From an uncultured bacterium (GTDB taxonomy: Bacteria; UBA8481): a DNA stretch of 64,000 nucleotides. The stretch covers positions 8,943-72,942 of the forward strand of contig CAZCME010000001.1 in NCBI GenBank assembly GCA_964499705.1, in the 5' to 3' direction. The notes under the pieces were generated by a model. The model had not been told where the DNA came from. It saw nothing but the letters and a program-made list of their open reading frames with translations, and did no database searches. Positions 4,138-62,876 of the stretch are shown here, in pieces. Positions within the stretch are counted from its first letter, which is position 1. Each line of letters begins with the position of its first letter. The position numbers and the translations under genes were made by a program.

Positions 4138-4164
4138 AACCCGGGAGTCGGAATCAGGGATTAT

Positions 4165-6777: not shown

Positions 6778-9005
6778 CTCGGCCCGATCTCGATCGGGCC
6801 CCGCCAGATTCCACCCCCCCTTCCCTCGTCCTCCCCGCGGATTGCGACGTTGTTCGCGCCGGACTTCAGAATCGAAAACGGCACGGCGTAGGATCGCGGC
6901 ATCCTGTACGCATCCGGTCCGGGCGGCGTGCGTCCGACCTCCACGCCATTGACGTAAGCCTGATCCGCGTCGTCCACCGCTCCGAGCGTCAGCGTGATTC
7001 GCGATCCCGATTTCTTCCATGCGTCGCGTTGTTCCTCGCTCAATATGAACTCGGTCCGGATCCATCCGATACCATCATATTCGTCCCACGCCCCGCCGAA
7101 ATTCTCCCATCGATCCGGCACGGCGACATCGGTCCACTCCACATCGGCGATGTCCGCGAGCGCGAATGAACCGTCCCCGCGATGCGCCTTCCACCGGGCC
7201 GATCGAGCGAGGTCGATCGATGCCGCGGGACCGTGGACGGCGCGGGTCTTCCAACCGATGCGGGATGTTGCTTCGCGGATCCAGGAATTCCGCATGAAGA
7301 GCTTCCACAGCAGGCCGCTTCGGAAATTTTCGCACGCGAGCAGCACCGTGCCCTGGTCGATGCCGATGACGCATCTGGTCACGAACCCTCGAGACTTGTT
7401 GACTGAATCCGGAAATCCATATTTGCCCCAGGAGTCGCGGTGATCGTCATACAGGCGGCGCAGCGTCGCCAGGGACAGGTTCGGAAGGAACGGTAACGAA
7501 CCCGCGGCGGCGTACACGACGAGGCTGCCGTCCATCGGAGGATTGCCCGGCGGAAATCCGTACACGATGTAGGCGTCGTCGAGACCGTCCGCGGGCCCCA
7601 GCCCCCACCGATCGGGCGCGTAGCTGCCCGGGAATTTCTCAGCCTCGCTCAAGCAGTACGCCCGCATTCCCAGCGACATGTTCGTCGCGTTCTCGAAGAA
7701 GTCGAGCCCGCTCTTATCCGTTTTCCCCCGGAAGTCATACCACAATGTCGGGTAGATATAGAGGGCCGTCTGAGCGAACGGGAGGGTCATGTATTCGTAT
7801 CCGTCGTATGATCCGGGTCTGCGTTCCAGAGCGTACCAGCTCTCGGCGTCCAACGGATACGTCGGACTGCCGAGACCGAGGATATAGACGAGCGGCGATT
7901 CATCCACGGCGGAGGCCCAGCGATAGGGAATGAACTTTCCATTCGCGCTCACGCCCATGGAAACGAGCCGGGGATCCTGGTCGCGCGCCCACGCCCAGTC
8001 GACCCGCTTGTAGATGCGCGTGGCCAGCGCGGAGACCACGGTATCGCCGAAATACTCCATGGCCGTAATCATGCCGGACAGGAAGAGGACGGTGTCGATG
8101 GTCGAAATTTCCGTGCCGGGCTCGTCCTCGCCGGTCGACATGTTCACAAAGTGAGGAAAGAATCCGTGGACGTTCCGGATGGGGCCGTCGGCGACCGTCT
8201 TCAGGGTCGCGCGAACGCGCTCGATCCCCTCGTCGCGCGCGACCCATCCGCGCTCCACTCCGATGACGCAGGCCGACAGAGCCCATCCGGTCGCCGCGAT
8301 GGAGGAAACCACCCACTCTTCGCTCGATGCGTAGTTGTGTCCCCGGTCCTTCGTGAGTCCGGTGACCGTGTCGGATTCCCACCAGAAATATGCGAACGCT
8401 CGCCGCTCGACCAGATCGAGAAACCGGTCATCCGTCAGTTCGGAGGATCGCGCGGGATCCTGCCGCGATTCCGCGAGGAGCCGATCGGCGATCGAGCGTT
8501 CCCAGGCTTCCCGCGGCGACGGCGCGGCTTTCCATCCGACCAGGTTCACCGCGGGCGGATTTCCATCGGCGCTGCCGTGAAACATGATCTCGTGGATCGA
8601 GCTTCCCCACGCCGTGGCGCGCTTCTCGCAATGGATCCGGACCTTTTCAGTCCGGACGGCTGGATTCAGCAGGAGCACATCCTCCATGCCCGTTCCGCCC
8701 CGCTTCGTCACGATCACGTTCCACCGGCCCGCCTCGTCCGGAACGCTCACCGTGTAATCGGCCGCTCTCGCTGTTTCCCAGCGGATGACGATCGAATCGA
8801 TCCAGACGGAGCGGTCGAATGTATTCTCGATCCACTGGTCGTCGGCGAAATCGCTCGACCATCTTGTCTTGCCGTCGCCGTCGAATGCGAATTGCGGAAA
8901 GTAACGTCCTTCCGTCGTGGATGCATTGGCGGCAACGACGTAGGCGCCGAGCGGTCCGCGGTGAAGAGGACTGGCCGCGCCGCAGGCTCCGATCAGAAAT
9001 ATCAC
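6774..9005 (-). CDS. secreted glycoside hydrolase-like protein: N-terminal F5/8 type C (discoidin) domain + six-hairpin PF10091/GH144-like (putative endo-beta-1,2-glucanase family) domain + C-terminal galactose-binding-like domain
   Basis: Discoidin signature (..FDGDGKTRWSS....QWIE..F......I.I.WE.A.A..Y.V....). Central region (..GLTKDRGHNYASSEEWVVSSIAATGWALSA..ERGWVARDEG..) recalled as the PF10091/DUF3131-type (alpha/alpha)6 fold. The family assignment is from memory and needs an HMM check. Confidence 0.55.
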   Translation of the reverse strand: MIFLIGACGAASPLHRGPLGAYVVAANASTTEGRYFPQFAFDGDGKTRWSSDFADDQWIENTFDRSVWIDSIVIRWETARAADYTVSVPDEAGRWNVIVTKRGGTGMEDVLLLNPAVRTEKVRIHCEKRATAWGSSIHEIMFHGSADGNPPAVNLVGWKAAPSPREAWERSIADRLLAESRQDPARSSELTDDRFLDLVERRAFAYFWWESDTVTGLTKDRGHNYASSEEWVVSSIAATGWALSACVIGVERGWVARDEGIERVRATLKTVADGPIRNVHGFFPHFVNMSTGEDEPGTEISTIDTVLFLSGMITAMEYFGDTVVSALATRIYKRVDWAWARDQDPRLVSMGVSANGKFIPYRWASAVDESPLVYILGLGSPTYPLDAESWYALERRPGSYDGYEYMTLPFAQTALYIYPTLWYDFRGKTDKSGLDFFENATNMSLGMRAYCLSEAEKFPGSYAPDRWGLGPADGLDDAYIVYGFPPGNPPMDGSLVVYAAAGSLPFLPNLSLATLRRLYDDHRDSWGKYGFPDSVNKSRGFVTRCVIGIDQGTVLLACENFRSGLLWKLFMRNSWIREATSRIGWKTRAVHGPAASIDLARSARWKAHRGDGSFALADIADVEWTDVAVPDRWENFGGAWDEYDGIGWIRTEFILSEEQRDAWKKSGSRITLTLGAVDDADQAYVNGVEVGRTPPGPDAYRMPRSYAVPFSILKSGANNVAIRGEDEGRGGGIWRGPIEIGPR

Positions 9006-9045
9006 GATCGCGCAGAGCTCCCGTGACCTCTTGAACGCGCGCGGG

Positions 9046-12000
9046 TTAATATTCGATTTCGAGCTCCGCAGGCAGGGACTTCACCGCGATGGTCGTCTCC
9101 GTGAACTGCCCGTGGGTTTTTCCGTTTATCTTGACGGATCGAATCGGCCGGTCGAGAGGAGACTGCACAACGATCCCCCCCGGAGGCCGCGCCGTGCCCG
9201 AGAGGCCGATCCGCACGCCGTCGCCCTCTCGCACCGCGGTGTAGTTGAGAATCCCCCAGTAGGTCGGCGCTTTCTCGATGCCGACTTTCTCCCCCGACTC
9301 CAGCCACTCCTGCGGAATTCCCGCGTTGACGACCAACGTCCGGTCCGCGTCGCGCTCGTATACGAACATGCTCCGCACCGCCTTGATGTAATCCGAACCG
9401 AGCCATGTGTGCGGCATGTCGCCAATCCAGCGGCCGGGCTTCGGGTCGCGGAAGACGATCTCCGACCAGTGATTCCAGTTCGACGGGCGCTGGTCCTGGA
9501 AGAAAAACCCGAGGAGCTTATGCGCGCGATCTTTCTTTCCCATCATGATGAACGATTGCGCGTTTCGGATCTCGTACGGTGTGTAAGCCTCGCCCCATTC
9601 GGCGCCGGGAACCAGGCGCTTCTCGAAATCCTTCCAGTATTTTTCGAAGGTGATGTTCAACGCGGGTTGCGGAAGATGATCGAGCTCGCCGCCGGGGAAG
9701 AGCGCGATGGAGGTCGCGGTGGCGTCGAAGTCGCCCAGGTCGACCGCGCCGGGGATGTGATCGATGTGGAACATCTTCTGCGACAGCTCGATGGAATCGA
9801 GGATGCACTTCCGGAAATCCTCCGATTCGTCACGATATTTTCGCGCGAGTTCTTTCTTCCCGAGAATTTCGCAGATGGCCGAGGCATCCTTCATGCCCTT
9901 CAAGCAGAGAAAATCGTCCCAGAGCGAAAAAACGGGCTTGGCGGAGTATCCCTCGTGGCTGATGGATTCCTCAACGAGGCCGTATCCGACCCGCTTGGCG
10001 TCGGCCCCGTTCTTGTATTCGTCCGTCTTCCGGCGGTTCCGCATCGCGATGATGAATTCCGCCGCCTTCCGGATCTCCTCGAAGTGCTGCTGCAGGAAAG
10101 CGCGGTCGCCGGTGAAACGGTAATATTGCATGAAGCCGTATATGAACTCGCCGTTGGAATCATTTTCCGGGACGCCGTCGGCTCCGCGGTCGTCCACGAC
10201 GCACGGGACGCGGCCGTCGGGGAAGAGGAACTTCGCGTACCAGGTCAGATACTCTCGGACTTCCTTCTGATTGTTCATCCTGAGAATCGCCGCGGATGTC
10301 AGGGCTCCGTCGCGGATCCAGGAACGGAGGTAGCTGCGGGAACCCGGCTGCATCCGGTAGCCGTCGCGGTTCAGGAAGATGTAGGCGAGATTGGATTTCA
10401 GGGTCTCGATGTATTTGTTCGCGCTCGGCGGAACGTGAAAGACGACGCGATCGAGCCGGTCGGCCCACCAGTCGATCTGAGTCTTCATCTTGTCTCCGAT
10501 AAGTTTCGCCGCCGCACCCGGAGCCTGGTTCGTCGCGAGCGAAGGCGAAGCCTTGTGGAAGGGGACCGCGAGATGGAAGACGGCTGACTCTCCGGGAGCG
10601 AGATCGAAGGGGTATTCGAGAACGCCGGATCCGTATCCGTCCTGGTCCGCGATGGACTGTTCCGCCGGCACGCGGCCCTCCTTCAGGAATTCGGTGATGT
10701 CGCCGGATGCGTAGGGCGCCGCGCCGAAGGCTTGCGGCCTGGAGAGAGGAAGCACGCGCTGGTCGTCATTGACGCGGACGATCGCGTTGTCGTACGCGAT
10801 GGACCGGATCTTCGCGGCGCCGCCGACCTGGTTCAGCTTCTGCCAGGGGGGATTCACCTGGAAGGGGCGGATCGCGAGAAAGAGCTTGCCGGCCGCCCTC
10901 TGTTCGGTCGAAGGGTTGGAGACGACGTAGGACGCATAGAGCGTCGATGCTCCAGCCTGGCCGTCGGAGAAGAGCCGGGTCGAGAGCCGCACGTCGTTAC
11001 AGCTCCACCGTACTTCCGGGATCGGAAGGTAACCGCGTTCGAGAAACTGCGATGTCGTCACGTCCGCCCATGTGACCAGACGTCCTCCGCCGGCGGTTCC
11101 GAGATAGAGAAAAGGCTCTATGGAGAATTGCTCGCGGTCGACTTCGAAAGCCCCCTCCTCGTTGAAGAGAGCCTCCTTGACATCCTCCGTGACTCCGACG
11201 ATCGTCCAGTAGGTCGCATCCTGTGAAAAATATTTCGGAAAATATCCTCGCGGCGCTTCCTCCGCCATGATCTCGTACGTCTTGTTCTGGTCGCCGCCGG
11301 CTTTCGCTCCCTTCAGTTCGAGCTCCCTGATTTCATATCCGCCTGAGCCTTCGAGACAGACGATCTTGATGTGTCGCGCTTCGCTCTCATGGAATACCAG
11401 CCGATCCCGCCCGCCGTTTCCGCGCCGGGTCGCGTAAACTTCCGTCCAGCTCTTTTCGTCGGATGACAGGTACACTTCATAGTTCTTCGCGAAAGATTCT
11501 CCCCAGTGGATGTGAAGACCTCCGATGTCGCGGTCGCGGCCGAGATCGAGCGCAAGCCATGGCTCCGCGCCGGGCGTGCTGGCGCCGCCCGCGCTCTGCC
11601 ACTGCGTATGCATGTCACCGTCGCGCGCATTCGAGGCGGGCGATTGCTCCGAGGAAGCGGAGAGCTTGAGCTCGTCTTCGAGCCCTTTCATGGAGATCTC
11701 GAAGATGGAGTTACCCCACTCCGTTCCGCGCTTCTTCGCGTCGATCTTGACATAGCGCGCCGAGCGTTTACCGAAATACAGATCGTCGATCCCGCCCGTG
11801 CCCGCCTCGGTGGAGTAGACGCGCGCCCATTCGCGCCGATCGGTCGAAACGAGAATGTCATAGACTTTCGCGTAGGCCGCTTCCCAGTGAATGACCATGC
11901 CGACGAAGTCGCGGGTTTCGCCGAGATCCAATTCGATCCATTGCGCATCCTTGTGCTCGCTCGCCCAGCGGGACCCTTTGTCACCGTCGACGGCCTTGGA

Positions 12001-30504: not shown

Positions 30505-31581
30505 ATGGTTAACAAGCAGAAGCCCGTCACGATAGAAATGGTCGCATCGCAGGCCGGCGTCTCCAAGACGACGGTCTCCTTCGTCCTCAACAATAATCCA
30601 TCCATCAGCGAAGCCACGCGCAAGAAGGTTCTGCAAATTGTCGACCAACTCGGCTACCAGCCCAACACCAACGCCCGGAATCTCTCCTCCAAGAAGACGC
30701 GAACGATCTGCATCGTCCTTCCCGAATTGGGACACATCTTCGAGGATCCCTACTTCGCCCGCGCCATCGGCGGTGTGTATGACGAAGTCGAAGCCGCGGA
30801 TTACCGGCTCATCCTGAAGAAAGCCTCGTTCGAATTCGCGAAGGACAAGGAATACCTGAACCTCTTCCGCCGGAAGGAAATCGCCGGAATGCTGTATGTC
30901 GGCTCCACGCTCGACGACCAGTACCTCGCCGAATTTGTCGACACCGGTTTTCCGTTCATTCTCGTCAACAGCTACCTGCCCGGGATCAACATCCCCTTCG
31001 TCATCTCGGACAACGTGACCGCGGCCTACGTCGCGACGCATCACCTGATCGAACTGGGTCACACGCGGATCGGGCATATCGCGGGATCCAGGAACACGAC
31101 GACGGCGATCGATCGGATCGCGGGATATCGAAAGGCGCTGGAGGAAGCCGGGATCGGCTTCGATCCCGACTTCATCGCCGAAGGCCACTACAACAAGAAC
31201 ATGGCATCGGCGGCGACGCGACGGCTCTTCGAGCTTTCCGAGCGGCCCACCGCGATCTTCGCCGGAAACGACATGATGGCGCTCGGCGTCCTGGACGCCG
31301 CTTCCACGCTCGGGCTCCGCGTTCCGGAAGATTGCGCTCTCGTCGGAGGCGACAACATCGAGATTTCGCAGTTCACGAATCCGCCCCTGACGACGATCGA
31401 TCAGCCGATCTACGAGGTCTCGCGGACGGCGATCCGGACGTTGTTCGAGCTCATCAGCGGGGAGATTCTCCCGTCGGAAGCGCGCAAGATGACCCCGACG
31501 CAGCTCATCGTGAGGAAATCCTGCGGCGCGAAATCGGGAGTGGAAAACGGAAAGAGGGTCGGAGCAGCCGGTGCCAAGTAG
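30505..31581 (+). CDS. LacI-family transcriptional regulator
   Basis: N-terminal HTH (..VTIEMVASQAGVSKTTVSFVLNNNPSISEATRKKVLQIVDQLGYQPNTNARNL..) and periplasmic-binding-fold C-domain (..ICIVLPEL.., ..IGHIAGS....DRIAGYRKALEEAGI..). Confidence 0.88.
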   Translation: MVNKQKPVTIEMVASQAGVSKTTVSFVLNNNPSISEATRKKVLQIVDQLGYQPNTNARNLSSKKTRTICIVLPELGHIFEDPYFARAIGGVYDEVEAADYRLILKKASFEFAKDKEYLNLFRRKEIAGMLYVGSTLDDQYLAEFVDTGFPFILVNSYLPGINIPFVISDNVTAAYVATHHLIELGHTRIGHIAGSRNTTTAIDRIAGYRKALEEAGIGFDPDFIAEGHYNKNMASAATRRLFELSERPTAIFAGNDMMALGVLDAASTLGLRVPEDCALVGGDNIEISQFTNPPLTTIDQPIYEVSRTAIRTLFELISGEILPSEARKMTPTQLIVRKSCGAKSGVENGKRVGAAGAK

Positions 31582-58800: not shown

Positions 58801-60819
58801 GCGGGCAATGCGGACACGTCCGCGACCCGCATTCTCGTGATCGACACGATCGCGCGCGTCACGCCGACGGCTCCCGCCGACGGGCTCCGCACGAACAGCA
58901 CGACGCCCGCTTTCACATGGACCGGCGACGGCGACGCCTTCACAATCCAGGTCTCGAAGGTGAATACGTTCGCGACGATCGCGGCGACAACGACCGGATC
59001 GATCTACAGCTATACGCCGACGCTTGCCGCGGATACGTATTACTGGCGCATCTTCGTCACGGACGCCGCCGGCAACGCGGACACATCCGCGACGAGATCT
59101 CTCGTCATCGACACGCTGGCCTCGGCGACATTGACCGTCCCGGCGGATAACCTCCGCACGAGCGACTCGCGCCCGATCTTCACATGGACGGGCGACGGAG
59201 ATACCTTCACGATCCAGGTCTCGAAGGCGAACACGTTCGCTTCGATCGCGTACACGAATACGTCCTCCGTGATGACATACCAGACGACGCTCGCGACGGA
59301 CACATACTACTGGCGTGTGCTCGCTTCGGACGCGGCCGGCAACGCGGGCGTTTCGGCCACGCGCACGCTCGTGATCGACACGAGCGTCGTCGTGACGCTC
59401 ACATCACCTGCAGATCTCTTCGCTCAGACGGAGACGAAGCCGACATTCACATGGACCGGCGACGCGGATACATACATCCTTCAGATCTCGACCTCCTCCT
59501 CCTTCGCGACGATCTTCGACTCGAAGACGACCTCGTCTACCTCTTACACACCTGCGCTCGGCTACGCGCTCGACACGTACTACTGGCGCGTTACAGGTCA
59601 GGACAACCTCGGCAATGTCTTTACGACCGCGTCGAGAACGCTCTATCTTGTCCTCATTCCGCCGCCTCCGGCGCCGAACGATTCGACGACGTCCTTTGCC
59701 GACGTCATAACGGTCTCGAGTTCGCTCGGTTCCTCCGGTCTCCGCGTGACCGGCACGTCCATTACGCTGTCGACCGGCTTCAGCGATTCCGTTCTCTCCG
59801 TCGTTTTCGAATATCGGACGGTGATGGACGCGACATGGCGCTCGTGCACGATCGCGACGAACAGCGGCTCGAACCCGGATACGAAGGGGCCGCTCTGGAG
59901 CATCTACTGGGATGTCTCGGCACTGCCCGAGGACACGTACTACCTCCGCGCGACCGCGACCAAGCTGGACGGAACGATGGACTCCACACCCTCCACGATC
60001 AGCCTGATGAAGAGCGCGATATTGCCGCAGATCCAGGAGTGGCACGACACGGCGCTGAACCGGCACATCCGCCGCCAGGCCGTGATGCGCGCGACATGGG
60101 ACACGATCATGATTGCCGACGGCACGATGCTCATTATTCCGCCGACCGCGATTCCGGGGACGGACAGCATGTGGGCGCGGGTCACGGCCCATGCCGCGGC
60201 TCCTGCGGAAGCGCCCGCTCCGGGCGCCGGCAGCGTTCTCGTAGCCGGAACATCAGGCACGTATCGCCGTTTCGAATTCGAGAACGGCCAGTCGACGTTC
60301 AACGATTACGTCACGATCGGGATGCCGTATTCCGAAGCCGGGCTCACCGTCACCGAAGGCGAACTGGCCATCTACTATTACGACGCGGGCCTCCAGAGCT
60401 GGGTCAAGACCGACAGTTGCTGGGTGGACACGGTCCGGAACATGGCCTGGTGCCGCGTCCGCCACTTCACGGACTTCGCCGTCTTCGGAGCCGCCGCCGC
60501 CGGAAATCTCGGCAGCGTCATCGTCTATCCGAATCCGTTCGTTCCCTATGACAACGACGTCCAGACCGGCCAGCCGTTCGTGCGGGGCGACAACACGACC
60601 GGCATCATCTTCTCGCGGGTCACATCCACGGTCGACATCGACATCTACACGATCGCGGGCCGCAAGGTCTCCACGATCCATGCGACGAACACGGGCGGCA
60701 ACGTCCAATGGGATGTCCGGAACGACGAAGGCCGTGAAGTCGCCTCCGGCGTCTACTTCGCCATCATCCGCGCGCCGAACGGCGAGCGGAGCGTGCAGAA
60801 GTTCATGGTGATCCGATGA
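31837..60819 (+). CDS. giant secreted multi-modular alpha-glucan-active protein (9,660 aa): signal peptide, GH13 alpha-amylase catalytic domain, CBM48-like x2, GH57-like catalytic module x2 plus one divergent GH57-like module, CBM25/26-like x2, CBM20-like x3, CBM9-like region, >25 FN3 domains, 32 tandem ~91-aa FN3-like repeats, C-terminal T9SS-type sorting domain
   Basis: Single uninterrupted ORF in the six-frame track. N-terminal signal (MKTRRSPSQPSYALLASLFHRFILLASLFLVVTSVEA). GH13 regions I-IV (..DAIWISNPF.., ..GFRVDAIKHV.., ..FGEAFS.., ..FADNHDVARF..). GH57 regions (..FLWHMHQP.., ..LPHDGDNYGG.., ..SCYWYWDG..) occur twice. C-terminal ..VIVYPNPFVPYDN....GIIFSRVTSTVDIDIYTIAGRKVSTIHATNTGGNVQWDVRNDEGREVASGVYFAIIRAPNGERSVQKFMVIR is T9SS-CTD-like. 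Confidence 0.8.
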   Translation: MKTRRSPSQPSYALLASLFHRFILLASLFLVVTSVEAWTLADQQMPTSWAGHSYTPSPGDWRYFGVYQVMTDRFYDGNPSNNTAHNYSTDFGAPSGQLPTEGNRRTIGGDFQGMKENIDYIKSLGYDAIWISNPFMGTEANGYAPTTYNCIDPKLGTVQEFRDLVDAAHARGMYVIVDMVGNHFANWFTDHAFNGAGYGTPTYATDASKRYGATFNDAIGEGNFHNYGNISNWNAPWDLEHGELVGLDDLITEDAYVRNYVIDHYVNMIKAFDIDGFRVDAIKHVNINDWALICSGIRAGAAAVGKSNFYMFGEAFSGSHDAVGYYTGNKAGTGTKIMNGMMDYAMYQQGVPWMLFNDQWGLKNWVAGMNNASYDMGQGNGTTVWNFGNMNVHFADNHDVARFLSSGDWDRMLSVQGMLTMIEGLGAMYYGGEQAFNTAGTDGRGAYGALYDHPFQWDNAVGDNVNMSFWLYKKIAKMMAARRRIGAGLGTGTTLLDPQNGIFAFRRGNDAFVAINGTNMTQSATFNVGLSGTWTNLVDGSSGSGPSLAISLPKYEVGVWIRNIADPVLEPMVTDVSPANGALTGATTLTITFDQNMDPASTIAAASIAPDPGGTWNVTGATLTRTGMTVQPGVTYVVKVAKTATNATGKAMYGGFVSRFKGSYSSPVVNGNVITFNYQGGATAKVKGNWAITGGSNGVYTAAYNAAWTGPAVDMIQSNGLWTATITLTENTVFEYGFEINGAWTNDPVNTNHAVNGNDRFTSGAGTPAGPDSVPPVFGGLTSATDAGTSGKVNLAWSAATDTSTPIKYNIFWTNNAADSVAKSYVDMTPNAVVSSATSYQVTGLTNGAQYWFVVRAEDAKTGAGGPGGGNQETNLVDRTATPTGLASPIVNGNVVTFAFSGGGLGKVKGSWIVTGGSNGNYTANYDSTWNAGATTNMVLSGSVWRCTFTLPANTTFEYGFEIDSAWTNDPLNTNHAANGNDKFTTGAASNGDTTPPSFAGLATAVDSGTGGRVSLAWAAGTDATGPVRYNVYWTNSAAAQVSKSYVDGTPDATTTSTSYLASGLTNASQYWFVVRAEDSAFGSGPNGGNQDTNLVDQTATPSGASNTAPTANAQNTTTPQNTAKVITLTGSDPEGSSLTFAIATQPSNGTLSAITAINATSASVTYTPNTNFNGNDAFTFTVNDGLLTSASANVGVNVVSGARPPIYISFLWHMHQPKYWPDEPATATEGRTDYGFSIRTIHTDRTGPYTSWPIDAIQNAMNAGLANSGAQVTFTGSLTENLNDYEAAGWAFGGWKNRWREGMQWRTALNNPRLDITQFPYFHVLQPLIGDKWTREHIRLFQNMYQGTFSAAAQSKGMFPTENCVSDFLIPAWKDNGIDWVIVDNVHFDRTALGYPWSSGGNLYEMNGADILNPNPNDWVQLNGLWAPTKISARWGHQPHYMQYVDPTTGTVRKMIAVPGSRYLGNEDARGGYGALQYDAVLSQLEPFNTDPAHPILVVLPHDGDNYGGGTDGYYHGNFSAMISWLQSNPTRFQLITIQDYLSMFPPDQSDVMHIEPGGWSGADNGDPEYKKWNGDPAADGYSPDRNSWMTLMAAENRVEHAERLQPTNGNVATAIRKMMVGMTSCYWYWDGSPPWDYHVTRACNEAVGLVDPIIAGGGADLQPPTVFLPQRDPYNPGGKEWNIQQASNLKVFTPAYDVSGLRRVELKYRVDDDGNNPIADVANEVYAGGAGVGAWQTLSMTVDAFPASRSNPQPIYRANIYAATIDGTNLANKLVDYYVEAEDNAGLITKTVIQHVKWGGTGGGGGGTTIWSPSAPTSSDTITVTWTKASKLHWGVNNWVAPNAVYWPAGSVAWDAQSIESPLDGSFKIVIGPFNNPAQTVTEVNIVFHNNDGTWDNNGGLNWKIPILVDTAPPARPATPILTSGNTTIDLTWAANGEADLNGYRLYRALAAAGPHSLIATLARTATTFNDSGLSNGTTYHYVLRAYDNAANTSDSSISTSATPSGVDVTPPSITSGLSALSLQQAVRITWNRNLESDMDSYVIFRRTSSGVFTQAALADSVTSTYTDTGLSAGETYTYLIRARDRSGNLADSSATATAVAQPNTPPAAPSGFYALPWDSSVRLRWNRNTEGDFAGYRVFRAGVTGGPYTQISGLLTDTQFTDSGLANGTTYFYVLAAVDTAGGQSSYTTEDSTTPRPLINVLFRVDVNGLSGVTIVRIAGDLFTPSWIPTANPLRDLGGGIWGETFAMPISTALQYKYVTNGANWENDFATASGKREITVVSMTADSRMFVNNKWNVAGDPAPTSPPGLQATATSQKVTLRWSNSFEYDIVGFNLYRSTTSGSGYSLIASLGTETGYNDTNVINGDTYYYVMAARDQVGQIGLFSAQVQATPGANQPPAVPNGLNATAGDRRVTLVWNANAEVDLAGYHLYRATVAGGPYAKINTDTILGTSYVDTGVTNGDTFYYVLRSVDIYDSQSAYSTEDSATPRAPDTTAPPVPTGLVATPASGQVTLNWNHVVAADSTGYNVFRGISPSGPFGKINGSLASTNSYVDLTVSNGVWYYYNVRSVDMVNNQSESSATVSAQPQTAVGGIEDRTIDGSFFDWKYTDVRALDTYVDNNYLWWDGFANHPVGYDPSRDLTAVYSREGTSDYFFRVDFQDLALGVEQTNMNLYLALDWNSATGQAFFPDFVDAQTSQPWELIIAIYDGGTTGKTLWKPDWTTIASPNVRASFNSQWDAVEIAVPKSHLTNLGWVSGQKIHLQVFTTRDGTNSGAGEVASLPDITDAMPDSYTQDAYLNGVISTESTVGRAKYSVILHGNQSLNPGGDINKWIYDAVAVTPNGNPSGYHRALQTMEQCNTPVNIHVSGSLAAVMDMANTTNPLNDGPTFNQRIADFVDDDWNDGRKGHIIGGVYAEHIMPYFRDDTSIGITINSRAQELKTDVLTSFYSLSRHPKVFWIPERVVDGQTLDNVILDRRTNTPTGYTTTILDNLTHIYYWLGSSFAHTNEFKLLRINGVNVFQINDHYDDRKFWAQDNAANYEVRTRLLDLARAADQEQVMIVFDDWEAYAGRSFASPNTIHDGPDNFDVSMKWIAQHPWVEVVTLEQLLDRNWTPVDAGTNLTYPKSTYQWLLHASEMGYDNWYWGSAQEENFSQQIPLLTGDRYSSPAVLNPIPSGKRYGSIWDAGTILRDVWSDIQALPGNQLKRLSEQGYIHLIYETAWHDEDISDKAWDPVTRVFTNPDNTWDGTSYWAYDLHGHVRHMGYLAEAARWADSVSAGAQSALTVVQTKDLDYDGESEYILKNSRVFGVFENDGGRMVLGVSYDTAQGGFVMVGNIITNAPSEGEEEDGSRRISAFADMNNSAYINANYSVATGTDSIVFTSPDGLIRKDIRLQHGSGTFEAAYRENLTGPVYIRNGLIANLHEMTYTGERYVQIVGATNGSYYGVKNTRAGGEIRLNFGGTTFNSAFTDGTMDNTNSPFVKAVEVTGNGNFTMSLTLNTDDTSVILDTPPVPSGLSATGGNGQVYLSWSPVSSASLAGYHVYRGTVNGGPYSKISDTRAQTNYTDTGVSNGTTYYYVVKSVSVRGASSANSNQATATPNPPTDTPAAPTGVTATAGNTEITVNWTATDTTLAGWHVYRSAAQGGPYTQVNGSILTGGSFTSTALTNGTRYYFVVKAQSLSGLLSAYSSEVSETPSASANVTTVLTAPSAGQTLTGAVPFTATCTAPQGVNRVEFKVDGALAGTATTPEQAGGDSAAGVWGVGSKTITIDGVNTAGEWTTACRIARDPAWDHANVMNGAWATHETPFDYTDLYAAWDATYLYIGIQIVDVTDIKDPSNAGSSNGTPARAMNLPQWLAFDVAPGGYTGVNGAGANTAEYDAWKKGQLFGGGTGVDTQIYFASNFWQGPFLIPYRNGFFPDSNTIGKQLGVFHGASGQGLAGTEVIGLDGTNFVAQGHNTGRNSFFELKIPLSYLGGPDLATRTIGIMVGQGDGTNASGVDCIPDDPATLNTQGVEVYNSPKEWADVDIFTVPFAKIGTSTGGSGASNTYRVIVNTANYQDGARVVTATGIANGAGGSASSSANVTFANAAPPPPAPTGVVATPASTLVALNWSAATGATGYNVYMATVSGGPYTKQNTSLVAGTQYSIPSLTNGTTYYFVVTAVNGQGLESPYSSQVQGIPAAGVNVVFTVDMRNAGAYSSVQVAGNQFTPAWTPSATPLANNTGGTWTVTRSFPSGTQIQYKYVKDSTGWEADFATTSKNREITVADQGGGVMYVDNVWGQEGNAAPAGPTGVTLTAAQSSITVSWTRSTSFDVISHCVYRSQTSGGPWNLVHETSTVNSWVDTGLTNGTRYYYVVRAKDRANQYSAYSTEVNATPGNDPAPAAPTGLAATAGVNQIALSWNPNTEPDHSGYNVWYTVSGGNGVPVKINGAIIPTAGYTHTNLDPNLTYTYYITCVDSGANEGPASATVARQPLNGGSQQPIYIAYQWHMHQPIYWPYENIRTTYTTRTNYAYVRDVLAWPDRVDAYTHNPVDAVANHMASKPNWGAQISYSGSLQENINNMAAASDGYFPGWNNRYAEGHGWTTTLGNRRVDLVSFGYHHPLLPFIDYRDARLQIQMHRRITTTTFGNPYSLGMFPAESAFSERIIPQLLDEGLQWVMVDNLHLDHCNKNFPWAAGEKINPPNRADAVNPPQGTYINLSCQTNTNYNVSPWGLRPHYAKYVNPNDGTERKMIIVPLERSLGYDDSYGDRTPQARLQAFLPHNTDPAHPLLVVLAHDGDNAGASGFRYYVETMGWLAGADPNQFRFTTVQDYLQMFPPDVNDVVHITDGSWVGADLGDQELKKWLGDPYQSGVVNFEQGFSSDWNSWMVITAGKNRMLTAEAIAPASGDIGGIVYKNGNNTDKAWAEFLVGEASCFWYWDGTVQWDEQPSRAVANAMVYADPIIASSPGTDNIAPNIFSLQREPYNPGATEAFKGVQPSDFQVFTFIYDVNAVSNATLYYRIDADGENPIGDNANEIYAGGAGVGPWVALTMETRVYAMPPAAQIQPQYRAEIYRAFINGLSNTLVDYYVTATDGRGNVSKSDIYHCYIGDPNSGGGGGRWTPANPTSSDTITITGDKAGKLHWGVNGWVAPNGVYWPSGTTTYDAQSVESPLDGTFKIVIGPFNNAAQAVTRVDFVFHYNDGTWDANSGLNYRIDITNDTTPPAQPTGFTSSPGNGFVQLGWTLGAGDVSSYKIYRGTTSGGPYSQVVSTGRVATYTDTAVVNATTYYYVLRSADATGNLSDTTTQISATPSGVDTTPPAKPSNVNATASEFGATVSWTANNEYDLAGYRIYRSITAGSSHVLIETTSLTSRSHSGLNPADTYYYVIVAFDSSGNASDTSTEKAIKPLAAQPPAAPTGVAITAGNAVCTITWNANGEPDLAGYNVYRAQGSSTAPYVKVNGSTVVVTNYANSGLTNDTTYYFRIRAVDTAGAESDSSAIVSATPVAGITVAFRVNVTGFSPGVVQIAGNQLTPTWTPSANPMTNEGANIWKIEKTYPVGTVIQYKFVRDTTTWESDFPAGASTNRDITVVDQGGGKMYVNNTWNVDGDAIPATPTGLQATAGAGAVNLTWNAVTVFDLDGYCVYRATAVGGPYAKIANQITLTSRNDSGLVNGTTYYYYVTAEDSAGQASGASSTVNATPIIPDTTSPAVVSGVDATVQGSTIRVAWNPNGETDVVGYRVYRSASANGAYTQLNGTIETDSDYSDSTVSVNTVYHYRVRAQDASGNLSDTSSADSASVTGNPIGVDGDPSEWTGTGPTTDRTYSIINGQWIWRDPPADQRTDATDPDSNYDLTEVRFTGDVNGVSFLGKFTDISASNLPFISLAVDKDQLAGSGEEWFSSNTDMTMADTGRRDYEIVINSNKTGYYGVGDNNWNWSDTGSSFISPGNNVIEANFQWYSLGITLPKLVRFTMGVAQHDGAGSAAEIFGSDALDAVTTATGNTWTEISDGQLDYNFDIGFNADGKVNSAPDTPTWIAPADGANLTSPLITFQWNQSDTDGAIAVSPYYEIQYATNSGFTTGLVIDSGAGNLTSRDRTFSGSGTYYSRVRMRDDFLWSGWSATRTFSVVDSTAPDGSASDWLGVASTTANESTVDKGEWIWTDANTDERTDGTDPDGNYDLKELRLKGDTSYLFILAKFRDITTTTLPYLAIGVETDQIYGNGQKWFGNGSDLQMDTNAWRELELVMNNNNVGFYSTINSWVWNDSGARTISTTNDLIEARYVWSDLKIVLPKKLRFSAMTAENDAGNVKDRYNADALDVVTQYSGNTWGEVQDTVLNFWVDLDFNRSGLINTRPGKPSLIAPLAGVTLNTSTVSFQFAWSDADSGAIANPKIELQLSTDSAFQTIVATCVEFDLDTLCAASLSSGGNFWWRVRTFDDFETSVWSDTRDFRADFYAAPITLLEPPDGIDTNTSFVRFAWTQPLDDLSGLDSFLLEIGTSSTFDTYQQTRTVDSNSYQLLKQGETVYYWRVRAVDRAGNMATSATRWLRLDTSVTVSAVTPTAGAATNDSTPTYTWTGNGSVYVFQLAPDATFFTLQDSVTLPGTTYAPSGATYHAHGGHYWRVLAWDTVGNSASTASRAIGIDTSVSVNFGAPANSTDTNQQRPVFSWSGDADTWTFEISRFTDFSVLYDNTTTAALTYQPGANYAGDTYYWRVRGQDTFGNTATATYRQIVIDTGITVNQTSPIDGVETNDATPTFAWTGDADTYIVEIATDAGFAAIMDSKTTNGLSHTPAANYNQGLFYWRIRAQKTAGSSKTTPTRTFRIDTSVVVTLVSPVANLETRSLRPVFTWTGDALSYNFQASTSATFATLVDTTISSGLIRTAAADYRADTYYWRIVARDTVGNIETSPVRILIVDTGVTVSSSTPADGFRTNDSTPTFTWTGTGETYILQVSRFTGFDTLTDVVTTAASTYTPSAYYGAAAYHWRVIASDDAGNIETSVDRIVTIDTSITVALSSPSNVFRTNSTAPAFAWTGDADTWTLQVARDAAFTAIVENRTQTLASFTGAGYSADTYYWRVSGADYAGNRDTTSSRSFTVDTTAAVTLTSPAASTVTSDSTPSFTWTGDGDTFTIQVSSSSTFATIQDSAISGGYTYTPSARYYGSGVWYWRVLSRDVAGNAETTASRTFTVDTGVVVTLSTPADGARVNFVTPTFAWTGDANIYVIQVSTASTFASLVDSKTTTALNHTPAFAYPADTVYWRIVGFDTVNVETSASRVLVIDTQVAVSLTSPANGSRTNDSTPAFAWTGGGDTWNIEVSRFSNFGSLLDAATLAGTTTYTPAQYYPADTLYWRVTARDSVGNSATTASRSLVIDTSVVAALSSPDDLFQTNDTTPAFVWTGDAQTWLLQVSRFTNFSVLFDSSATASTSYTTTILYPTDTYYWRIAGQDDVGNRETTAYRTLIIDTGLVVNLATPAANLETKSLRPVFSWSGNADTYIFQLSASAAFATILDSQTGATATFTPVADRAADTYYWRVVAKDNAGNTETSASRVLFIDTAPPSAPALASPADSATTRNVITVFTWTGDADSYAIELARDSVFASVVLAETRPTVSATSPQLGRDTYWWRVRGYDDAGNAGPWSGMRALFVDTLITVSGTTPADGARTNDSTPTFTWTGNGDTYTIEVSRLANFAALTIQATTTASTFTAGGSLGADTYYWRVSAVDSFGNAGVSTTRSFAVDTSATVTLATPADNTVTNDTTPSFAWSGDGDTWTIQVSRLANFSTIYDASTSAVATYTTGGYYGADTYYWRVVSLDQAGNSETSGSRIIVIDTAVSSTLATPADSTRTSDSTPSFTWTGSGDTYRLDISKSITFAPLQATATTSAVSHTLTTYLGQDTYYWRIVSLDVAGNTDTSAGRMLVIDTSATVSLTSPAAGTRTNDSTPAFSWSGEADTWTFEIARIADFSALVESRVTAATSYTPSTLYYGHDTYYWRVSGSDVAGNSAVAASRTLYIDTLISVSASSPAANAETLVLRPAFAWTGAADSYRFDLSRSATFATLVETSAMTAQGLTIASSLTADTYYWRVAAWDAAGNADTTAARTLFVDTGVTVASAPPADNTRTNDSSPSFTWAGDGDSYTFQIARDTSFGAIVDSRTTAAAAYTTSFYYGADTYYWRVLATDDAGNLASSASRLIVIDTGVVIALSSPADGALSNDSTPAFTWTGDADTYVLQVSSTSTFAAIFDSRTTSATTYTPSSGYATDTYWWRVIGYDALGNVETTASRTFRLMTAVAVNLLTPSDSFYANVLSPSFTWTGTGDTYTFQLSSSPTFATLAESVQQPTLSRTTALSLGAGVWYWRVIARDVAGNTDTAVARALVIDTSASVALATPADATRTSDSTPSYSWTGDGDTWTVQIARDAGFATIVQQSTVNVQTYTATILPEDTYYWRVIARDKAGNSDTAAARSFIVDTFVSVALDTPGDLYKSRDVTPNLFWTGTGDTYRVEISRSATFAPLYETATLAASPFNSAVVYPGDTYYWRVIATDQAGNFDTTAARRFIVDTTAPDTSTTVTLTTPADQHDTSDSTPTFLWSGDADTYIIQVARDTSFAALVDAATLSGAVSYTTAGYYAQDTYYWRVIGFDVAGNYDTTPARRIAIDTTVNVALASPSDAIQTLDTRPTFTWTGDGDTYLLELAFNDNTFATLHDSQLSSALTYRPSAAKYMGAGIYYWRVTVWDRLGNQKTASTRSLFIDTEVRVTLSTPADGDSTTNNRPTYTWAGDADTYWLQVSTSAVFATIYDSKYQAANSYTPGFSSSGGTYYWRVTGYDQAGNIFTTTGRSLLIVNALTLSLTAPADNIRTTDSTPSFTWTGNGDSYTFEISKSSSFATTIDTKNLTVTNYAPAGYYGADTYYWRVIGRDSAGNTFTSPTRTLGIDTIAAVSLTSPASGTRTKDTRPILVWSGDATSNASDVFTVQVSTSLSFATIAATTSGYVSSYQPTLVADTYYWRVLLVDAAGNADTSATRILVIDTIARVTPTAPADGLRTNSTTPAFTWTGDGDAFTIQVSKVNTFATIAATTTGSIYSYTPTLAADTYYWRIFVTDAAGNADTSATRSLVIDTLASATLTVPADNLRTSDSRPIFTWTGDGDTFTIQVSKANTFASIAYTNTSSVMTYQTTLATDTYYWRVLASDAAGNAGVSATRTLVIDTSVVVTLTSPADLFAQTETKPTFTWTGDADTYILQISTSSSFATIFDSKTTSSTSYTPALGYALDTYYWRVTGQDNLGNVFTTASRTLYLVLIPPPPAPNDSTTSFADVITVSSSLGSSGLRVTGTSITLSTGFSDSVLSVVFEYRTVMDATWRSCTIATNSGSNPDTKGPLWSIYWDVSALPEDTYYLRATATKLDGTMDSTPSTISLMKSAILPQIQEWHDTALNRHIRRQAVMRATWDTIMIADGTMLIIPPTAIPGTDSMWARVTAHAAAPAEAPAPGAGSVLVAGTSGTYRRFEFENGQSTFNDYVTIGMPYSEAGLTVTEGELAIYYYDAGLQSWVKTDSCWVDTVRNMAWCRVRHFTDFAVFGAAAAGNLGSVIVYPNPFVPYDNDVQTGQPFVRGDNTTGIIFSRVTSTVDIDIYTIAGRKVSTIHATNTGGNVQWDVRNDEGREVASGVYFAIIRAPNGERSVQKFMVIR
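31960..33530 (+). other. GH13 alpha-amylase-type catalytic domain of the giant protein
   Basis: Conserved regions at 32161..32240 (GDFQGMKENIDYIKSLGYDAIWISNPF), about 32662..32690 (GFRVDAIKHV, nucleophile Asp), about 32770 (FGEAFSG, acid/base Glu) and about 33016..33045 (FADNHDVARF). Confidence 0.8.
35441..36840 (+). other. GH57-like catalytic module 1 of the giant protein
   Basis: HMHQP at 35476..35490. ..MFPTENC.. (putative nucleophile Glu region). VVLPHDGDNYGGG at about 36328..36366 (GH57 region IV HDDGEKFG-like). SCYWYWDG at 36711..36734 (region V CNDAYWHG-like). Confidence 0.6.
40270..41300 (+). other. divergent third GH57-like module of the giant protein (possibly non-canonical or non-catalytic)
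   Basis: ..SVILHGNQSLNPGG.. in place of HQP. ..VFDDWEAYAG.. at 41023..41049 in place of HDDGE. ..YDNWYWGS.. at 41257..41280 in the region-V position. Confidence 0.4.
45270..46700 (+). other. GH57-like catalytic module 2 of the giant protein
   Basis: QWHMHQPIYW at about 45301..45330. ..MFPAESAFSE.. VVLAHDGDNAGAS at about 46153..46191. SCFWYWDG at 46582..46605. Collinear with module 1. Confidence 0.6.
50830..59650 (+). repeat. in-frame tandem array of about 32 FN3-like repeats (period ~275 bp / ~91 aa) inside the giant gene
   Basis: Each unit carries ..TP.F.WTGD(A)DTY..QVS....FA......T....YTP.....DTYYWRV.A.D.AGN..T...R.L.IDT.. The (Y/W)(Y/W)WR(V/I) core occurs 32 times between about 51060 and 59580 at 265-285-bp spacing. 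Nucleotide copies differ mostly at wobble positions. Confidence 0.85.
60530..60816 (+). other. T9SS-type C-terminal sorting domain (Por secretion CTD / FlgD-Ig-like) of the giant protein
   Basis: Last ~90 aa: YPNPF...(G)IIF........DIDIYTIAGRKV.........G..V.WD..N..G..VASGVYFAII....G....QKFMVIR is the canonical CTD pattern. Confidence 0.6.
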
Positions 60820-62273
60820 CCTTGTTTGTTAACCACAAAGACACAAAGACACGAAGAAGAACGAAAAAATATTATTTCGTTCTTCTTCGTGTCTTTGTGT
60901 CTTCGTGGTTATTTGCCGTTGCTTCCGATGCCGCCACATTTTCGGGCGCCGGATCCACGGGTGCGCAATTTCTGGAACTCGGCGTCGGAGCGAGGTCGGC
61001 GGCGATGGGGGAGGCTAATGCCGCGTGGGCGAACGACGTCTACGGCCTCTACTACAATCCGGCGGGCGTCGCCCGGTCCTCCCGATTCGAGGCCGGCTTC
61101 GTTCATAACAATCTCTTCAGCGAAATTTCCTACAATTACCTCGGCTATATCCATCCACTTTCCTACGGCGGGACGATCGGCGTTGATCTGACCTATCTCG
61201 ACCTGGGCACCGTCAAGCGCACCACGATCGCCTCGGGAACCGCCGGAACATTTCTCGGCACGGCCAGCGCTCATGATTTCGCGGTGGGTCTCACATACGC
61301 GCGGCCCTTTCGCTCCTTCCTCGACCTCGGCGGAAAGATCAAGGTCATCAACGAGAGCCTCGACGACAGGAGCGCGACCGCGGTCGCTGTGGACCTGGGC
61401 GCCACCTGGCGGCCTCCGGTTCAAGGATTGACAGTCGGTCTCTCCGCGTCCAACATGGGATCCTCCCTGAAATTCGTCCGCGAATCGGAGGACCTGCCAT
61501 TCACCGTCCGTCTTGGCGGCGGATACAGGAACGCCACGGGCCGATGGGGCGTCGTTTCCGATGTCGTATGGATCTCCAACCAGGATGTCGAGGCCAAGGT
61601 GGGCGGCGAAGTCTGGGTCTGGCCGGAGCATTTCGTCCTGCGGGCGGGATTCAACGCCGCGAATGAAGTGACACGCGGCGGAGCCACGGCCGGAGCGGGA
61701 TTCCACTGGGACGACCTTGCCGTCGATTACGCGTTCACGCCGTACGGAGATCTTGGCAACGGCCACCAGGTGTCCTTGACGTATCAGTTCGGACAGCCGC
61801 GTCGCGCGCCCGGCGGCGCCGTCATCAGGCGCGCCGATCCGGCATCGACATCCGCGACCGCGCCCCAGCCCGCGGGCTCCACGCGTCAGCAGTACATGCC
61901 CGTCGTTGCGCAGCAGCCCAACTCGCTCCTGGCCATGCCCTTCCGTTTCCAGTCGGGAGATCCTAAATTCGTCTGGCTGGGATCGGCCATCCCGGAGGTC
62001 TTTCATCATCTCTGGAAAAAGTCGAACCTTAAGGCCGCCGATGCCGTGAGCGCCGCCTACACAGTGGAAGGCGATTACTGGGTCGTCGACAATCTCCTCA
62101 TCATCACCGCGAAGCTGAATCACGAAGGATACGAAGCGAAGACCTTCCAGTGGCGCGGCGACGTCAGTCGCGCGTTTCTCATCTTCGACGACATGGTTCA
62201 TGACGTGAACAACGAATTGCTGTTGCGTGGCGTTTCGATCCCCATCCCCTCGTGGCCGCGAAGAAGGCGATAA
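60816..62273 (+). CDS. PorV/PorQ-family outer-membrane beta-barrel protein (T9SS cargo shuttle-like)
   Basis: Mature N-terminus ..GAGSTGAQFLELGVGARSAAMGEANAAWANDVYGLYYNPAGVA.. matches the PorV-family hallmark (..aqFL.lgvgARa.amGgAf.A.adD.sa.y.NPAGla). Alternating beta-strand pattern follows. ATGA overlap with the stop of the giant gene. Confidence 0.6.
   Translation: MTLFVNHKDTKTRRRTKKYYFVLLRVFVSSWLFAVASDAATFSGAGSTGAQFLELGVGARSAAMGEANAAWANDVYGLYYNPAGVARSSRFEAGFVHNNLFSEISYNYLGYIHPLSYGGTIGVDLTYLDLGTVKRTTIASGTAGTFLGTASAHDFAVGLTYARPFRSFLDLGGKIKVINESLDDRSATAVAVDLGATWRPPVQGLTVGLSASNMGSSLKFVRESEDLPFTVRLGGGYRNATGRWGVVSDVVWISNQDVEAKVGGEVWVWPEHFVLRAGFNAANEVTRGGATAGAGFHWDDLAVDYAFTPYGDLGNGHQVSLTYQFGQPRRAPGGAVIRRADPASTSATAPQPAGSTRQQYMPVVAQQPNSLLAMPFRFQSGDPKFVWLGSAIPEVFHHLWKKSNLKAADAVSAAYTVEGDYWVVDNLLIITAKLNHEGYEAKTFQWRGDVSRAFLIFDDMVHDVNNELLLRGVSIPIPSWPRRRR
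60831..60910. promoter_or_regulatory. about 36-bp-arm inverted repeat (aaccacaaagacacaaagacacgaagaagaacgaaa / tttcgttcttcttcgtgtctttgtgtcttcgtggtt, one mismatch) with an 8-nt aaatatta loop, 12 nt after the giant gene stop and inside the 5' coding region of the porV-like ORF
   Basis: Read directly from the sequence. Candidate intrinsic terminator/attenuator or RNA-processing structure. Its two arms encode the K/R-rich n-region and the hydrophobic h-region of the predicted PorV signal peptide. Confidence 0.55.
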
Positions 62274-62294
62274 GAGAAGGACGAGGGATGAGGG

Positions 62295-62876
62295 ATGAAG
62301 TACGGCTACTGCATGAGGATGGTATTCTTCATCTTTTTCCTCTCTTCCTGCGCTCCGCTTTACGCCGTCTTCGAACAGGACGATCCCCGGCTCATCATGA
62401 AAGTGGATCGTCTCTACCGGCTTCCACTTCCCGCTGACGGCGGCTCCTATCTCCTCATCCAGGGCGTCGGCGGCAAGTTGAGCCACACGGGCGACCAGAC
62501 GTGGGCGTTCGACTGGGCGATGCCGGAAGGGACGCCCGTTTGCGCGGCGCGTGCCGGCGTCGTGGAAACTGTGTTGATGGAGAGGGAGTCCGCGACGGTA
62601 CCTCTGGAATCGCGCGTCGCCGGAGAAGTGAGAATCCGCCACGCGGACGACACGCTGGGCGTCTACGCCCATATCCGCTCGGCCCGTGTTGAAAAGGGGA
62701 GACGAGTCGCGGCGGGGGATATTATCGCCGAGAGCGGCAACACGGGATTCTCCACGCGGCCGCATCTCCACTTTCACGTGGAGAAGGACGGCAGGAGCAT
62801 CCCGGTGGGGTTCAGCGATGTGGATGATGAAGAGGGAACGCCGCGTTCCGGCCGCGATTACGCGGCGCGGTATTGA
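62295..62876 (+). CDS. M23 family metallopeptidase (LytM/lysostaphin-like), lipoprotein
   Basis: M23 motifs ..HTGDQTWAFDWAMPEGTPVCAARAGVV.. (HxxxD) and ..GNTGFSTRPHLHFHV.. (HxH). Lipobox FFLSSCAPL. GAGGG RBS. Confidence 0.8.
   Translation: MKYGYCMRMVFFIFFLSSCAPLYAVFEQDDPRLIMKVDRLYRLPLPADGGSYLLIQGVGGKLSHTGDQTWAFDWAMPEGTPVCAARAGVVETVLMERESATVPLESRVAGEVRIRHADDTLGVYAHIRSARVEKGRRVAAGDIIAESGNTGFSTRPHLHFHVEKDGRSIPVGFSDVDDEEGTPRSGRDYAARY

Follow-up and report, generated by a model that had tools for sequence, protein, structure and literature searches.

Overlapping genes for a giant predicted starch-degrading protein and a PorV/PorQ-family barrel: a probable cognate cargo-carrier pair of the type IX secretion type in an uncultured bacterium

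The DNA analysed here, to which we refer as the window, is a 64-kb stretch of contig CAZCME010000001.1 from an uncultured bacterium. It carries a giant gene whose product ends in a C-terminal sorting domain (CTD) like those of type IX secretion system (T9SS) cargo, followed by an overlapping gene for an outer membrane (OM) beta-barrel of the PorV/PorQ family. We consider it probable that the 485-aa barrel protein is the cognate carrier, or anchor, of the giant amylase and that the two form a T9SS-type pair. A dedicated carrier and anchor is what we infer from the combination of a PorZ-type CTD, a PorQ-leaning barrel and a gene arrangement like that of SprB/SprF. The named full-length homologues of the barrel (43-59% identity) are all labelled Candidatus Hydrogenedentota, a phylum of the Fibrobacteres-Chlorobi-Bacteroidetes (FCB) group according to the NCBI taxonomy. 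The positions of all features are collected in Table 1.

The CTD of the giant protein extends to the last residue before the stop codon and matched the NCBIfam model TIGR04183, although the pass was narrow (25.9 bits for the last 199 aa and 28.2 bits for the last 112 aa; cutoff 23). It failed the Pfam model Por_Secre_tail (PF18962; 20.3 bits, cutoff 27). The closest likeness was to PorZ: the NF052228 model was matched at positions 666-757 only (46-48 bits, cutoff 260, E 5.1e-13), and a CTD profile compared with the sequences of the Protein Data Bank (PDB) gave the CTD of Porphyromonas gingivalis PorZ as its sole significant match (5m11_A, residues 666-758, ending ...RFAVIR). TIGR04183 was matched by all 12 aligned CTDs, every one of which matched the PorZ C-terminal region more strongly. 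The domain is, as judged from these matches, of a PorZ-like/FlgD-Ig-like subtype. The original prediction had described a canonical type-A CTD, a description that agrees with TIGR04183 but overstates the case in the word canonical, given the failure against PF18962 and the subtype. PorZ identity was rejected for the cargo itself, the full-length PorZ model not being matched and the likeness lying at the CTD level only. Membership in the type-B class was rejected on the scores against CHU_C (PF13585; 20.0 bits, cutoff 27) and TIGR04131 (a faint match in one of the 12 CTDs, E 0.032); the CTD motif reads YPNPFVPYDND, as against the PNGDGxND-type motif of type B.

An exhaustive phmmer search revealed that 3,654 representative proteins, of up to 6,616 aa, carry this CTD subtype, 408 of them at E <= 1e-10. 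The domain closes the protein, with at most one residue after it, in 147 of the 150 best hits. Members of the family bear the NCBI label 'T9SS type A sorting domain-containing protein [Candidatus Hydrogenedentota bacterium]'. Mid-sized CTD proteins, 46 in number, comprise peptidases of families M4, M36, S8 and C1, a beta-lactamase fold, an exoglucanase, Kelch/GlxA proteins and proteins with fn3/Ig domains. Matches to PorZ and PorU among these 46 were at the CTD level only (best E 2.5e-21 for PorZ and 9.3e-7 for PorU), and counting motifs of PorZ-like propeller repeats in them, a crude measure, gave no candidate.

The ATG codon of the barrel gene shares the sequence ATGA with the TGA stop codon of the giant gene, as read from the sequence, so that the two genes overlap by 4 nt. 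The barrel protein contains the motif 'AQFLELGVGARSAAMGEA...YYNPAG' and matched the PorV/PorQ family model NF033709 over its whole length (178.3 bits, cutoff 90, E 2.9e-52, model positions 1-326 of 326). Its best equivalog score was against PorQ (NF033711; 114.7 bits, below the cutoff of 220), followed by PorV (NF033710; 73 bits, below the cutoff of 250). All 23 barrel homologues matched NF033709, and all 23 scored in the order PorQ > PorV > PorV2. The Pfam PorV model was failed (PF19572; 15.3 bits, cutoff 27), and the score against Pfam UPF0164, an uncharacterised family, was exactly at threshold. Membership in the PorP/SprF family was rejected on the TIGR03519 score (19.7 bits, cutoff 90.55, E 4.6e-4).

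The AlphaFold model of the protein consists of 14 strands, preceded by short helices at residues 48-85 that correspond to the N-terminal plug of a FadL-type barrel. Its closest PDB structures are the PorV chains of the Flavobacterium johnsoniae translocon (6h3i and 8gl6; Foldseek E 7.5e-15, target-normalised TM-score 0.64-0.68), with FadL and TodX next. Beyond the barrel and a flexible linker, the model revealed a previously unannotated C-terminal domain with a TolB-N/CsgG/PelC-like fold, like that of periplasmic OM-associated modules. This domain must lie in the periplasm because the number of barrel strands is even; no OmpA-like peptidoglycan-binding domain was detected in the protein. Some barrel paralogues have two TolB-N-like domains, and a divergent group has a tetratricopeptide repeat (TPR) region instead. 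Thus, the earlier claim that a PorV/PorQ-family barrel with the hallmark motif is encoded by the gene overlapping the giant's stop codon was confirmed by NF033709 and by the 14-strand model, whereas the narrower designation PorV-like was not sustained, the protein and its homologues lying consistently nearer to PorQ and the PorV equivalog and PF19572 being failed.

The coupling of cargo and barrel genes in relatives is strongly supported. Loci from related metagenome-assembled genomes (MAGs), designated L001, L002 and so on and sampled at approximately 20 kb each, were searched by tblastn with the CTD, the module preceding it, the barrel, the C-terminal domain of the barrel and the M23 peptidase as queries. 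A CTD-ended ORF lies directly 5' of 14 of the 16 distinct Hydrogenedentota-type barrel genes, and the products of the upstream genes have nearly the same C-terminus, '...HFTDFAVFG...VYPNPFVPYDND...WD.RNDDG.EVASGVYFAI...KFMVIR*'. The 4-nt overlap is repeated in L001, L003 and L034, and in L007 and L026 the hit coordinates of cargo and barrel abut. Each MAG holds two to three barrel paralogues, in paralogous cargo-barrel pairs. A metagenome scan seeded with the CTD alone yielded seven further distinct CTD-barrel pairs, with a clear orphan (L027), a weak-CTD orphan (L033) and a borderline case (L029) as exceptions. Proteins of only 548-590 aa, belonging to a second paralogue group, have the same tail and a barrel of their own. 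The idea of a dedicated barrel coupled to a single enormous cargo therefore stands as far as the coupling goes, which was found in 14 of 16 cases and in the seven CTD-seeded pairs, but not as a peculiarity of giants. Outside the phylum, genes for large CTD-ended proteins abut or overlap a PorV-like barrel gene in two loci of Elusimicrobiota (L015 and L017), a phylum not belonging to the FCB group, as well as in a MAG of Fibrobacter (L019). Furthermore, the identity matrices of CTD and barrel are closely correlated over 18 pairs (Mantel r 0.91, p 2e-4), the nearest neighbours in one matrix corresponding to those in the other. This correlation fits pairs inherited and duplicated as units, with a contribution from shared phylogeny.

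These findings bear on two other explanations of the barrel. If it were the general housekeeping PorV (or PorQ) of a T9SS, its position after the giant gene would be incidental; its family membership and its best structural match, PorV, agree with such a role, as does the fact that one PorV serves all type-A cargo in Bacteroidota (PMC12618676). We regard this as very improbable, since there are several paralogues per MAG, 14 of the 16 directly follow a CTD gene and often overlap it, CTD and barrel diverge together, and both equivalog cutoffs were failed. An even less probable proposal is that the barrel serves uptake, as a FadL-type channel through which products or hydrophobic substrates enter, and shares an operon with a degradative enzyme for metabolic reasons. 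The FadL and TodX matches and the borderline UPF0164 score are in its favour; nevertheless, the upstream genes have the CTD in common and not their enzymology, the partners include the non-amylase proteins of 548-590 aa, CTD proteins include proteases, Kelch proteins and others, and no transporter family comes near the scores of the PorV/PorQ models.

The giant protein begins with a signal-peptide-like sequence, read from the translation, and its Pfam domains comprise a GH13 alpha-amylase (128.8 bits), two GH57 domains (Glyco_hydro_57, 106.7 bits), CBM20 (45.5 bits) and fn3/Ig domains; a very long series of Ig-like Big_13 repeats (327 bits) comes after them. From this composition it is predicted to be a multi-catalytic alpha-glucan-degrading (starch-degrading) enzyme of nearly 1 MDa carried on an Ig-repeat stalk. 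Orthologous giants occupy the same position in L001 (9,717 aa), L034 (at least 4,417 aa) and L003 (at least 2,752 aa), and these three have the C-terminal module of the giant in common with it. The pre-CTD module was found directly 5' of the CTD in 14 loci (36-50% identity by tblastn), and its consensus recurs across the 46 unrelated CTD proteins; tested on one protein, P0244, it matched no Pfam family.

The SprA/Sov translocon of Bacteroidota is where FadL-family carriers bind the CTD, and energy input then draws the carrier-substrate complex out of it (PMC10994853). PorV is the general carrier for type-A cargo (PMC12618676), and PorP/SprF-like barrels, often encoded beside type-B cargo, are cognate shuttles or anchors, as for the 669-kDa SprB with SprF (PMC9143113). 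PorZ retains its CTD after secretion (PMC11285876), and PorQ has been proposed to collect PorZ from Sov (PMC10947112). By analogy, the giant protein would be exported by Sec. At a T9SS-type translocon the extracellular loops of the partner barrel would then recognise its CTD, in the way proposed for PorV, SprF and PorQ, after which the carrier-cargo complex would depart from the translocon. Because the PorZ CTD is not removed, its likeness to the CTD of the giant argues for retention of the latter and not for removal by PorU with attachment to anionic lipopolysaccharide or release. Like its counterparts in PorZ-PorQ and SprB-SprF, the uncleaved CTD would remain non-covalently bound to the barrel, and the GH13/GH57 enzyme would be displayed on the cell surface at the end of its Ig-repeat stalk. 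The 4-nt overlap suggests translational coupling and may help to balance the output of carrier and cargo. Moreover, the periplasmic domain of the barrel could be a handle that tethers the complex to the cell wall or to a periplasmic hub, the role played by PorE for PorP.

The SprB-SprF pair of F. johnsoniae (PMC9143113; PMC12618676) is similar in that the gene of a giant repetitive surface protein adjoins that of its own 14-strand FadL-family barrel, in the presence of several paralogous pairs per genome and of orphan cargoes, and in an extended C-terminal region that includes the CTD (368 aa in SprB, approximately 420 aa here). SprF is required for the secretion and anchoring of SprB, whereas the carrier role is here a predicted one. 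The CTD here matches type-A/PorZ models and not those of type B, and the barrel, of the PorV/PorQ and not of the PorP/SprF family, is fused to a periplasmic TolB-N-like domain. Moreover, an enzyme takes the place of a motility adhesin as cargo, and the phylum is Hydrogenedentota. In the PorZ-PorQ part of the P. gingivalis T9SS attachment complex (PMC10947112; PMC5121618), the PorZ CTD is the nearest relative of the CTD described here, with the same ...F.VIR terminus, and PorQ, the equivalog against which our barrel scores highest, has been proposed to hold PorZ specifically. The differences are that the cargo is not PorZ (48 bits against a cutoff of 260), that the barrel falls below the PorQ cutoff, that many different cargoes are involved here, and that the genes porQ and porZ are not known to overlap.

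PorV itself (6h3i, 8gl6; PMC10994853) belongs to the same NCBIfam subfamily as the barrel and would likewise bind the CTD through extracellular loops, but it is encoded by a single gene, serves every type-A cargo and lacks a periplasmic domain, whereas the barrel of the window is genetically dedicated to one cargo. As in PorP-PorE, the CTD protein would be held by an OM barrel that is linked to a wall- or hub-binding module in the periplasm. PorE is a separate TPR/beta-propeller/OmpA-like tether, porP-like genes standing beside porE-like genes in 6 of 10 cases in F. johnsoniae (PMC9143113); in the window the module is fused and TolB-N/CsgG/PelC-like, a TPR region taking its place in the divergent paralogues of L004 and L016.

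Several observations weigh against the proposed cargo-carrier pair. None of the T9SS core genes (porK/L/M/N, sov/sprA, porT, porU and porZ) was found by family searches of the proteins of the 64-kb window, and none was present among the Pfam-labelled proteins in the fetched flanks of related loci, so that the translocon step is taken over from known systems. CTD and barrel pass only broad NCBIfam models (TIGR04183 and NF033709) and fail the Pfam (PF18962 and PF19572) and equivalog thresholds, which gives a divided answer to the profile searches that the original prediction had named as its check. The co-divergence of CTD and barrel is confounded by shared phylogeny, the barrels of L013 and L014 have no CTD neighbour, and some CTD proteins are orphans, as in L027. 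The binding of the CTD to the barrel, the retention of the CTD and the surface location of the cargo are predictions by analogy. Finally, a palindrome within the 5' end of the carrier gene, described below, could lower or uncouple carrier expression in this strain.

The same missing core genes would be expected if the pair were a self-contained display or secretion module, in which export and anchoring of the CTD protein would both fall to the FadL-like barrel, perhaps aided by BAM or a different pore, without a classical T9SS core. The presence of the pairing in Elusimicrobiota, where T9SS is reported absent (PMC11285876; PMC4793230), points the same way, and autonomy would be in keeping with a gene stoichiometry of nearly 1:1 and with the fusion of the periplasmic domain to the barrel. 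Published surveys place T9SS in Bacteroidetes only (PMC4793230) or in FCB phyla (PMC11285876). We nevertheless consider such a module unlikely: a plugged 14-strand barrel is too narrow for folded Ig or GH domains, and there is no precedent; T9SS core genes are typically scattered across the genome, whereas only some 20 kb were sampled per locus; and Hydrogenedentota belong to the FCB group, their CTD family being annotated as T9SS cargo and sharing the CTD signature of PorZ and PorU. A broader conjecture, which we hold to be similarly doubtful, is that 'one cargo, one carrier' is a widespread and possibly ancestral mode of CTD display, in which each PorQ/PorV-like barrel with its TolB-N-like or TPR handle exports and holds a single CTD protein, maybe without PorKLMN/SprA in, for example, Elusimicrobiota. 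If true, this would be a distinct outer-membrane display system and not an accessory of T9SS. A literature search found no paper linking Hydrogenedentes/Hydrogenedentota to T9SS, and a search for Hydrogenedentota with secretion systems returned nothing relevant.

The third gene of the apparent operon was correctly described as encoding an M23 peptidase lipoprotein, with 79.1 bits against PF01551 (cutoff 28.7, E 3e-22), an HLH motif read from the sequence and, by eye, an LSSC lipobox-like motif at the N-terminus; the gap to the barrel gene is 21 nt and not 22. It had also been proposed as a partner in cargo processing or cell-wall remodelling. As a functional third member, the peptidase would process the cargo or open the wall for the giant, and its location on the same strand, with a gap that leaves no room for a terminator, would suit that role, as would the preservation of the arrangement in a 99%-identical strain from Hainich groundwater (L038; ENA metagenome assembly ERZ1292639, contig prefix Hain_H51). 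That strain, however, is the only other place where the barrel-M23 arrangement was found among orthologous M23 loci. No M23 gene was found by tblastn in any of the related pair loci, and orthologues with 56-58% identity stand beside mreB in L037, whose MAG has its cargo-barrel pairs on other contigs, and in L036 are flanked by a LacI regulator gene on one side and an M32 peptidase gene on the other. In MAG J006 the pairs and M23 are on separate contigs.

The L036 locus is informative in a further respect. There, within 6832-8486, the M23 orthologue (58%) lies directly 3' of a LacI gene whose product is 63% identical (E 1e-175) to the LacI-family regulator encoded directly 5' of the giant gene in the window. 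Because LacI and M23 adjoin in L036, the giant-barrel pair, 30 kb in length, splits in the window two genes that are adjacent elsewhere, which suggests that the pair may have moved or been inserted as a unit between them. Thus, a functional role of M23 in the module is very unlikely, and the co-occurrence survey of the gene triplet in relatives upheld the cargo-barrel pair but not the inclusion of M23. The peptidase appears from these comparisons to be an unrelated cell-wall enzyme and a chance neighbour, probably co-transcribed with the pair in the window, yet outside the module. The LacI regulator may control the giant gene, and serves mainly as a positional marker.

The palindrome mentioned above is unique in the window, AT-rich within a GC-rich genome, and absent from the orthologous loci examined. 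The RNA of positions 60800-60940 folds with -66.3 kcal/mol (z -11.1). Of the predicted signal peptide of the barrel, the K/R-rich segment is encoded by the left arm and the hydrophobic segment by the right. A search for an Rfam identity gave sub-threshold look-alikes of microRNAs and small RNAs only, which were rejected as generic hairpin matches. Possible roles of the palindrome are to stabilise or attenuate the mRNA 3' end behind the giant gene or to slow translation of the carrier; alternatively, it may be a repeat element that was inserted here.

Table 1. Positions of the cargo-carrier pair, its parts and its immediate neighbours in the window
Feature	Position	Strand	Length	Basis or remark
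LacI-family regulator gene	30505-31581	+		Pfam LacI, Peripla_BP_1, Peripla_BP_3; directly 5' of giant gene
Giant cargo ORF	31837-60819	+	9,660 aa	ORF map
Pre-CTD module, common to giant and small cargoes	59557-60480	+	~308 aa	'FEYR..W..C...NPDT.GP.W.I.W....LPEDTYY.RA' ... 'HFTDFAVFG'
CTD, PorZ-like/type-A-like (predicted)	60481-60819	+		ends ...KFMVIR*; TIGR04183, NF052228 C-terminal region, 5m11_A match
Barrel (carrier) ORF	60816-62273	+	485 aa	ORF map
Signal peptide of barrel protein (predicted)	codons 1 to ~40	+
Palindrome in carrier ORF	60830-60911		41-nt arms, no spacer	95% complementary; codons 5-32 of carrier ORF; repeat search
PorV_fam match of barrel protein	60954-61790 (residues 47-325)	+		NF033709 profile
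Modelled barrel strands	residues 91-325	+		AlphaFold model
Disordered linker of barrel protein	61809-61916 (residues 332-367)	+
Periplasmic alpha/beta domain of barrel protein (predicted)	61926-62225 (residues 371-470)	+
M23 ORF	62295-62876	+	193 aa	ORF map

Other loci displayed variants of the pairing. In Elusimicrobiota, very large proteins (at least 3,300 aa) ending in '...ASGVY...K.A.IKGSGL*' are encoded directly 5' of a PorV-like barrel (L015, 3-10972; L017, 3-10293). A third locus of that phylum (L016, 7614-9947) has a type-B-like tail with PNGDGIND ('ITPNGDG.ND') and a PorV-like barrel directly 3', and the same type-B-like 'ITPNGDG.ND' tail occurs near a barrel in an unclassified bacterial MAG (L018, 2-718). 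Divergent pairs were located in L004 (13323-16729), L011 (6094-8267) and L016 (7614-11881), with 42% identity in the CTD and 31-35% in the barrel; in L004 and L016 the barrel extension is TPR-like and not alpha/beta, recalling the TPR domain of PorE. The barrels of L013 (within 5677-11833) and L014 (within 3094-8132) are approximately 620-690 aa long, have two TolB-N-like C-terminal domains and lack a CTD protein 5'; they come after a protein of 1,030-1,142 aa and pseudopilin-like ORFs with a prepilin-type N-terminus, a neighbourhood that hints at a tie to a type IV pilus or a type II secretion-like cluster. Second-group pairs in L002 (1-9843), L004 (1-9896) and L035 (1556-9961) end clusters of other large surface proteins, comprising Big_1/LTD proteins of 2,471-3,110 aa and F5/8-type-C and CLIPPER/DUF11 proteins, which in L002 and L004 stand beside ftsA-ftsZ. 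The large neighbours in these clusters have no CTD and presumably reach the surface by another route.

As for the remainder of the window, a convergent rpsT gene and a dksA-like gene, recognised by HMM, lie 3' of the M23 gene, and family searches identified sugar-binding proteins, GH3, a glucoamylase-like enzyme, F5/8-type-C proteins, an ftsA-ftsZ-pilT-amidase-pgeF group and housekeeping genes. Between 12723 and 18725, minus-strand shadow ORFs (311-472 aa, without family matches) overlie ftsA, ftsZ, pilT and the amidase gene, the real plus-strand genes being recognised by synteny with L002 and L004 and by family matches. Because of these shadow ORFs, ORF length is no proof of coding in this GC-rich genome.

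The principle of a cognate carrier is already established for type-B cargo with PorP/SprF barrels and has been proposed for PorZ and PorQ. What is new here is the occurrence of what are probably dedicated PorQ/PorV-family carriers for cargo with type-A/PorZ-like CTDs, with a fused periplasmic domain and often overlapping genes, in an expanded set in Hydrogenedentota. The Bacteroidota-based picture of T9SS has one PorV shuttle for all type-A cargo and dedicated PorP/SprF carriers for type-B cargo only, whereas the pairs described here exist in several copies in Hydrogenedentota and extend to Elusimicrobiota and Fibrobacter. If the proposed cargo-carrier relation is true, the cognate-carrier principle would span CTD classes and phyla, and PorZ-PorQ would resemble a Bacteroidota remnant of a broader system. 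The succession of a CTD gene and a barrel gene would then provide a genomic rule for predicting which enzymes of uncultured FCB bacteria are anchored and which are released. For the organism of the window, the pairing shows how a multi-catalytic amylase of nearly 1 MDa is probably kept on the cell surface.

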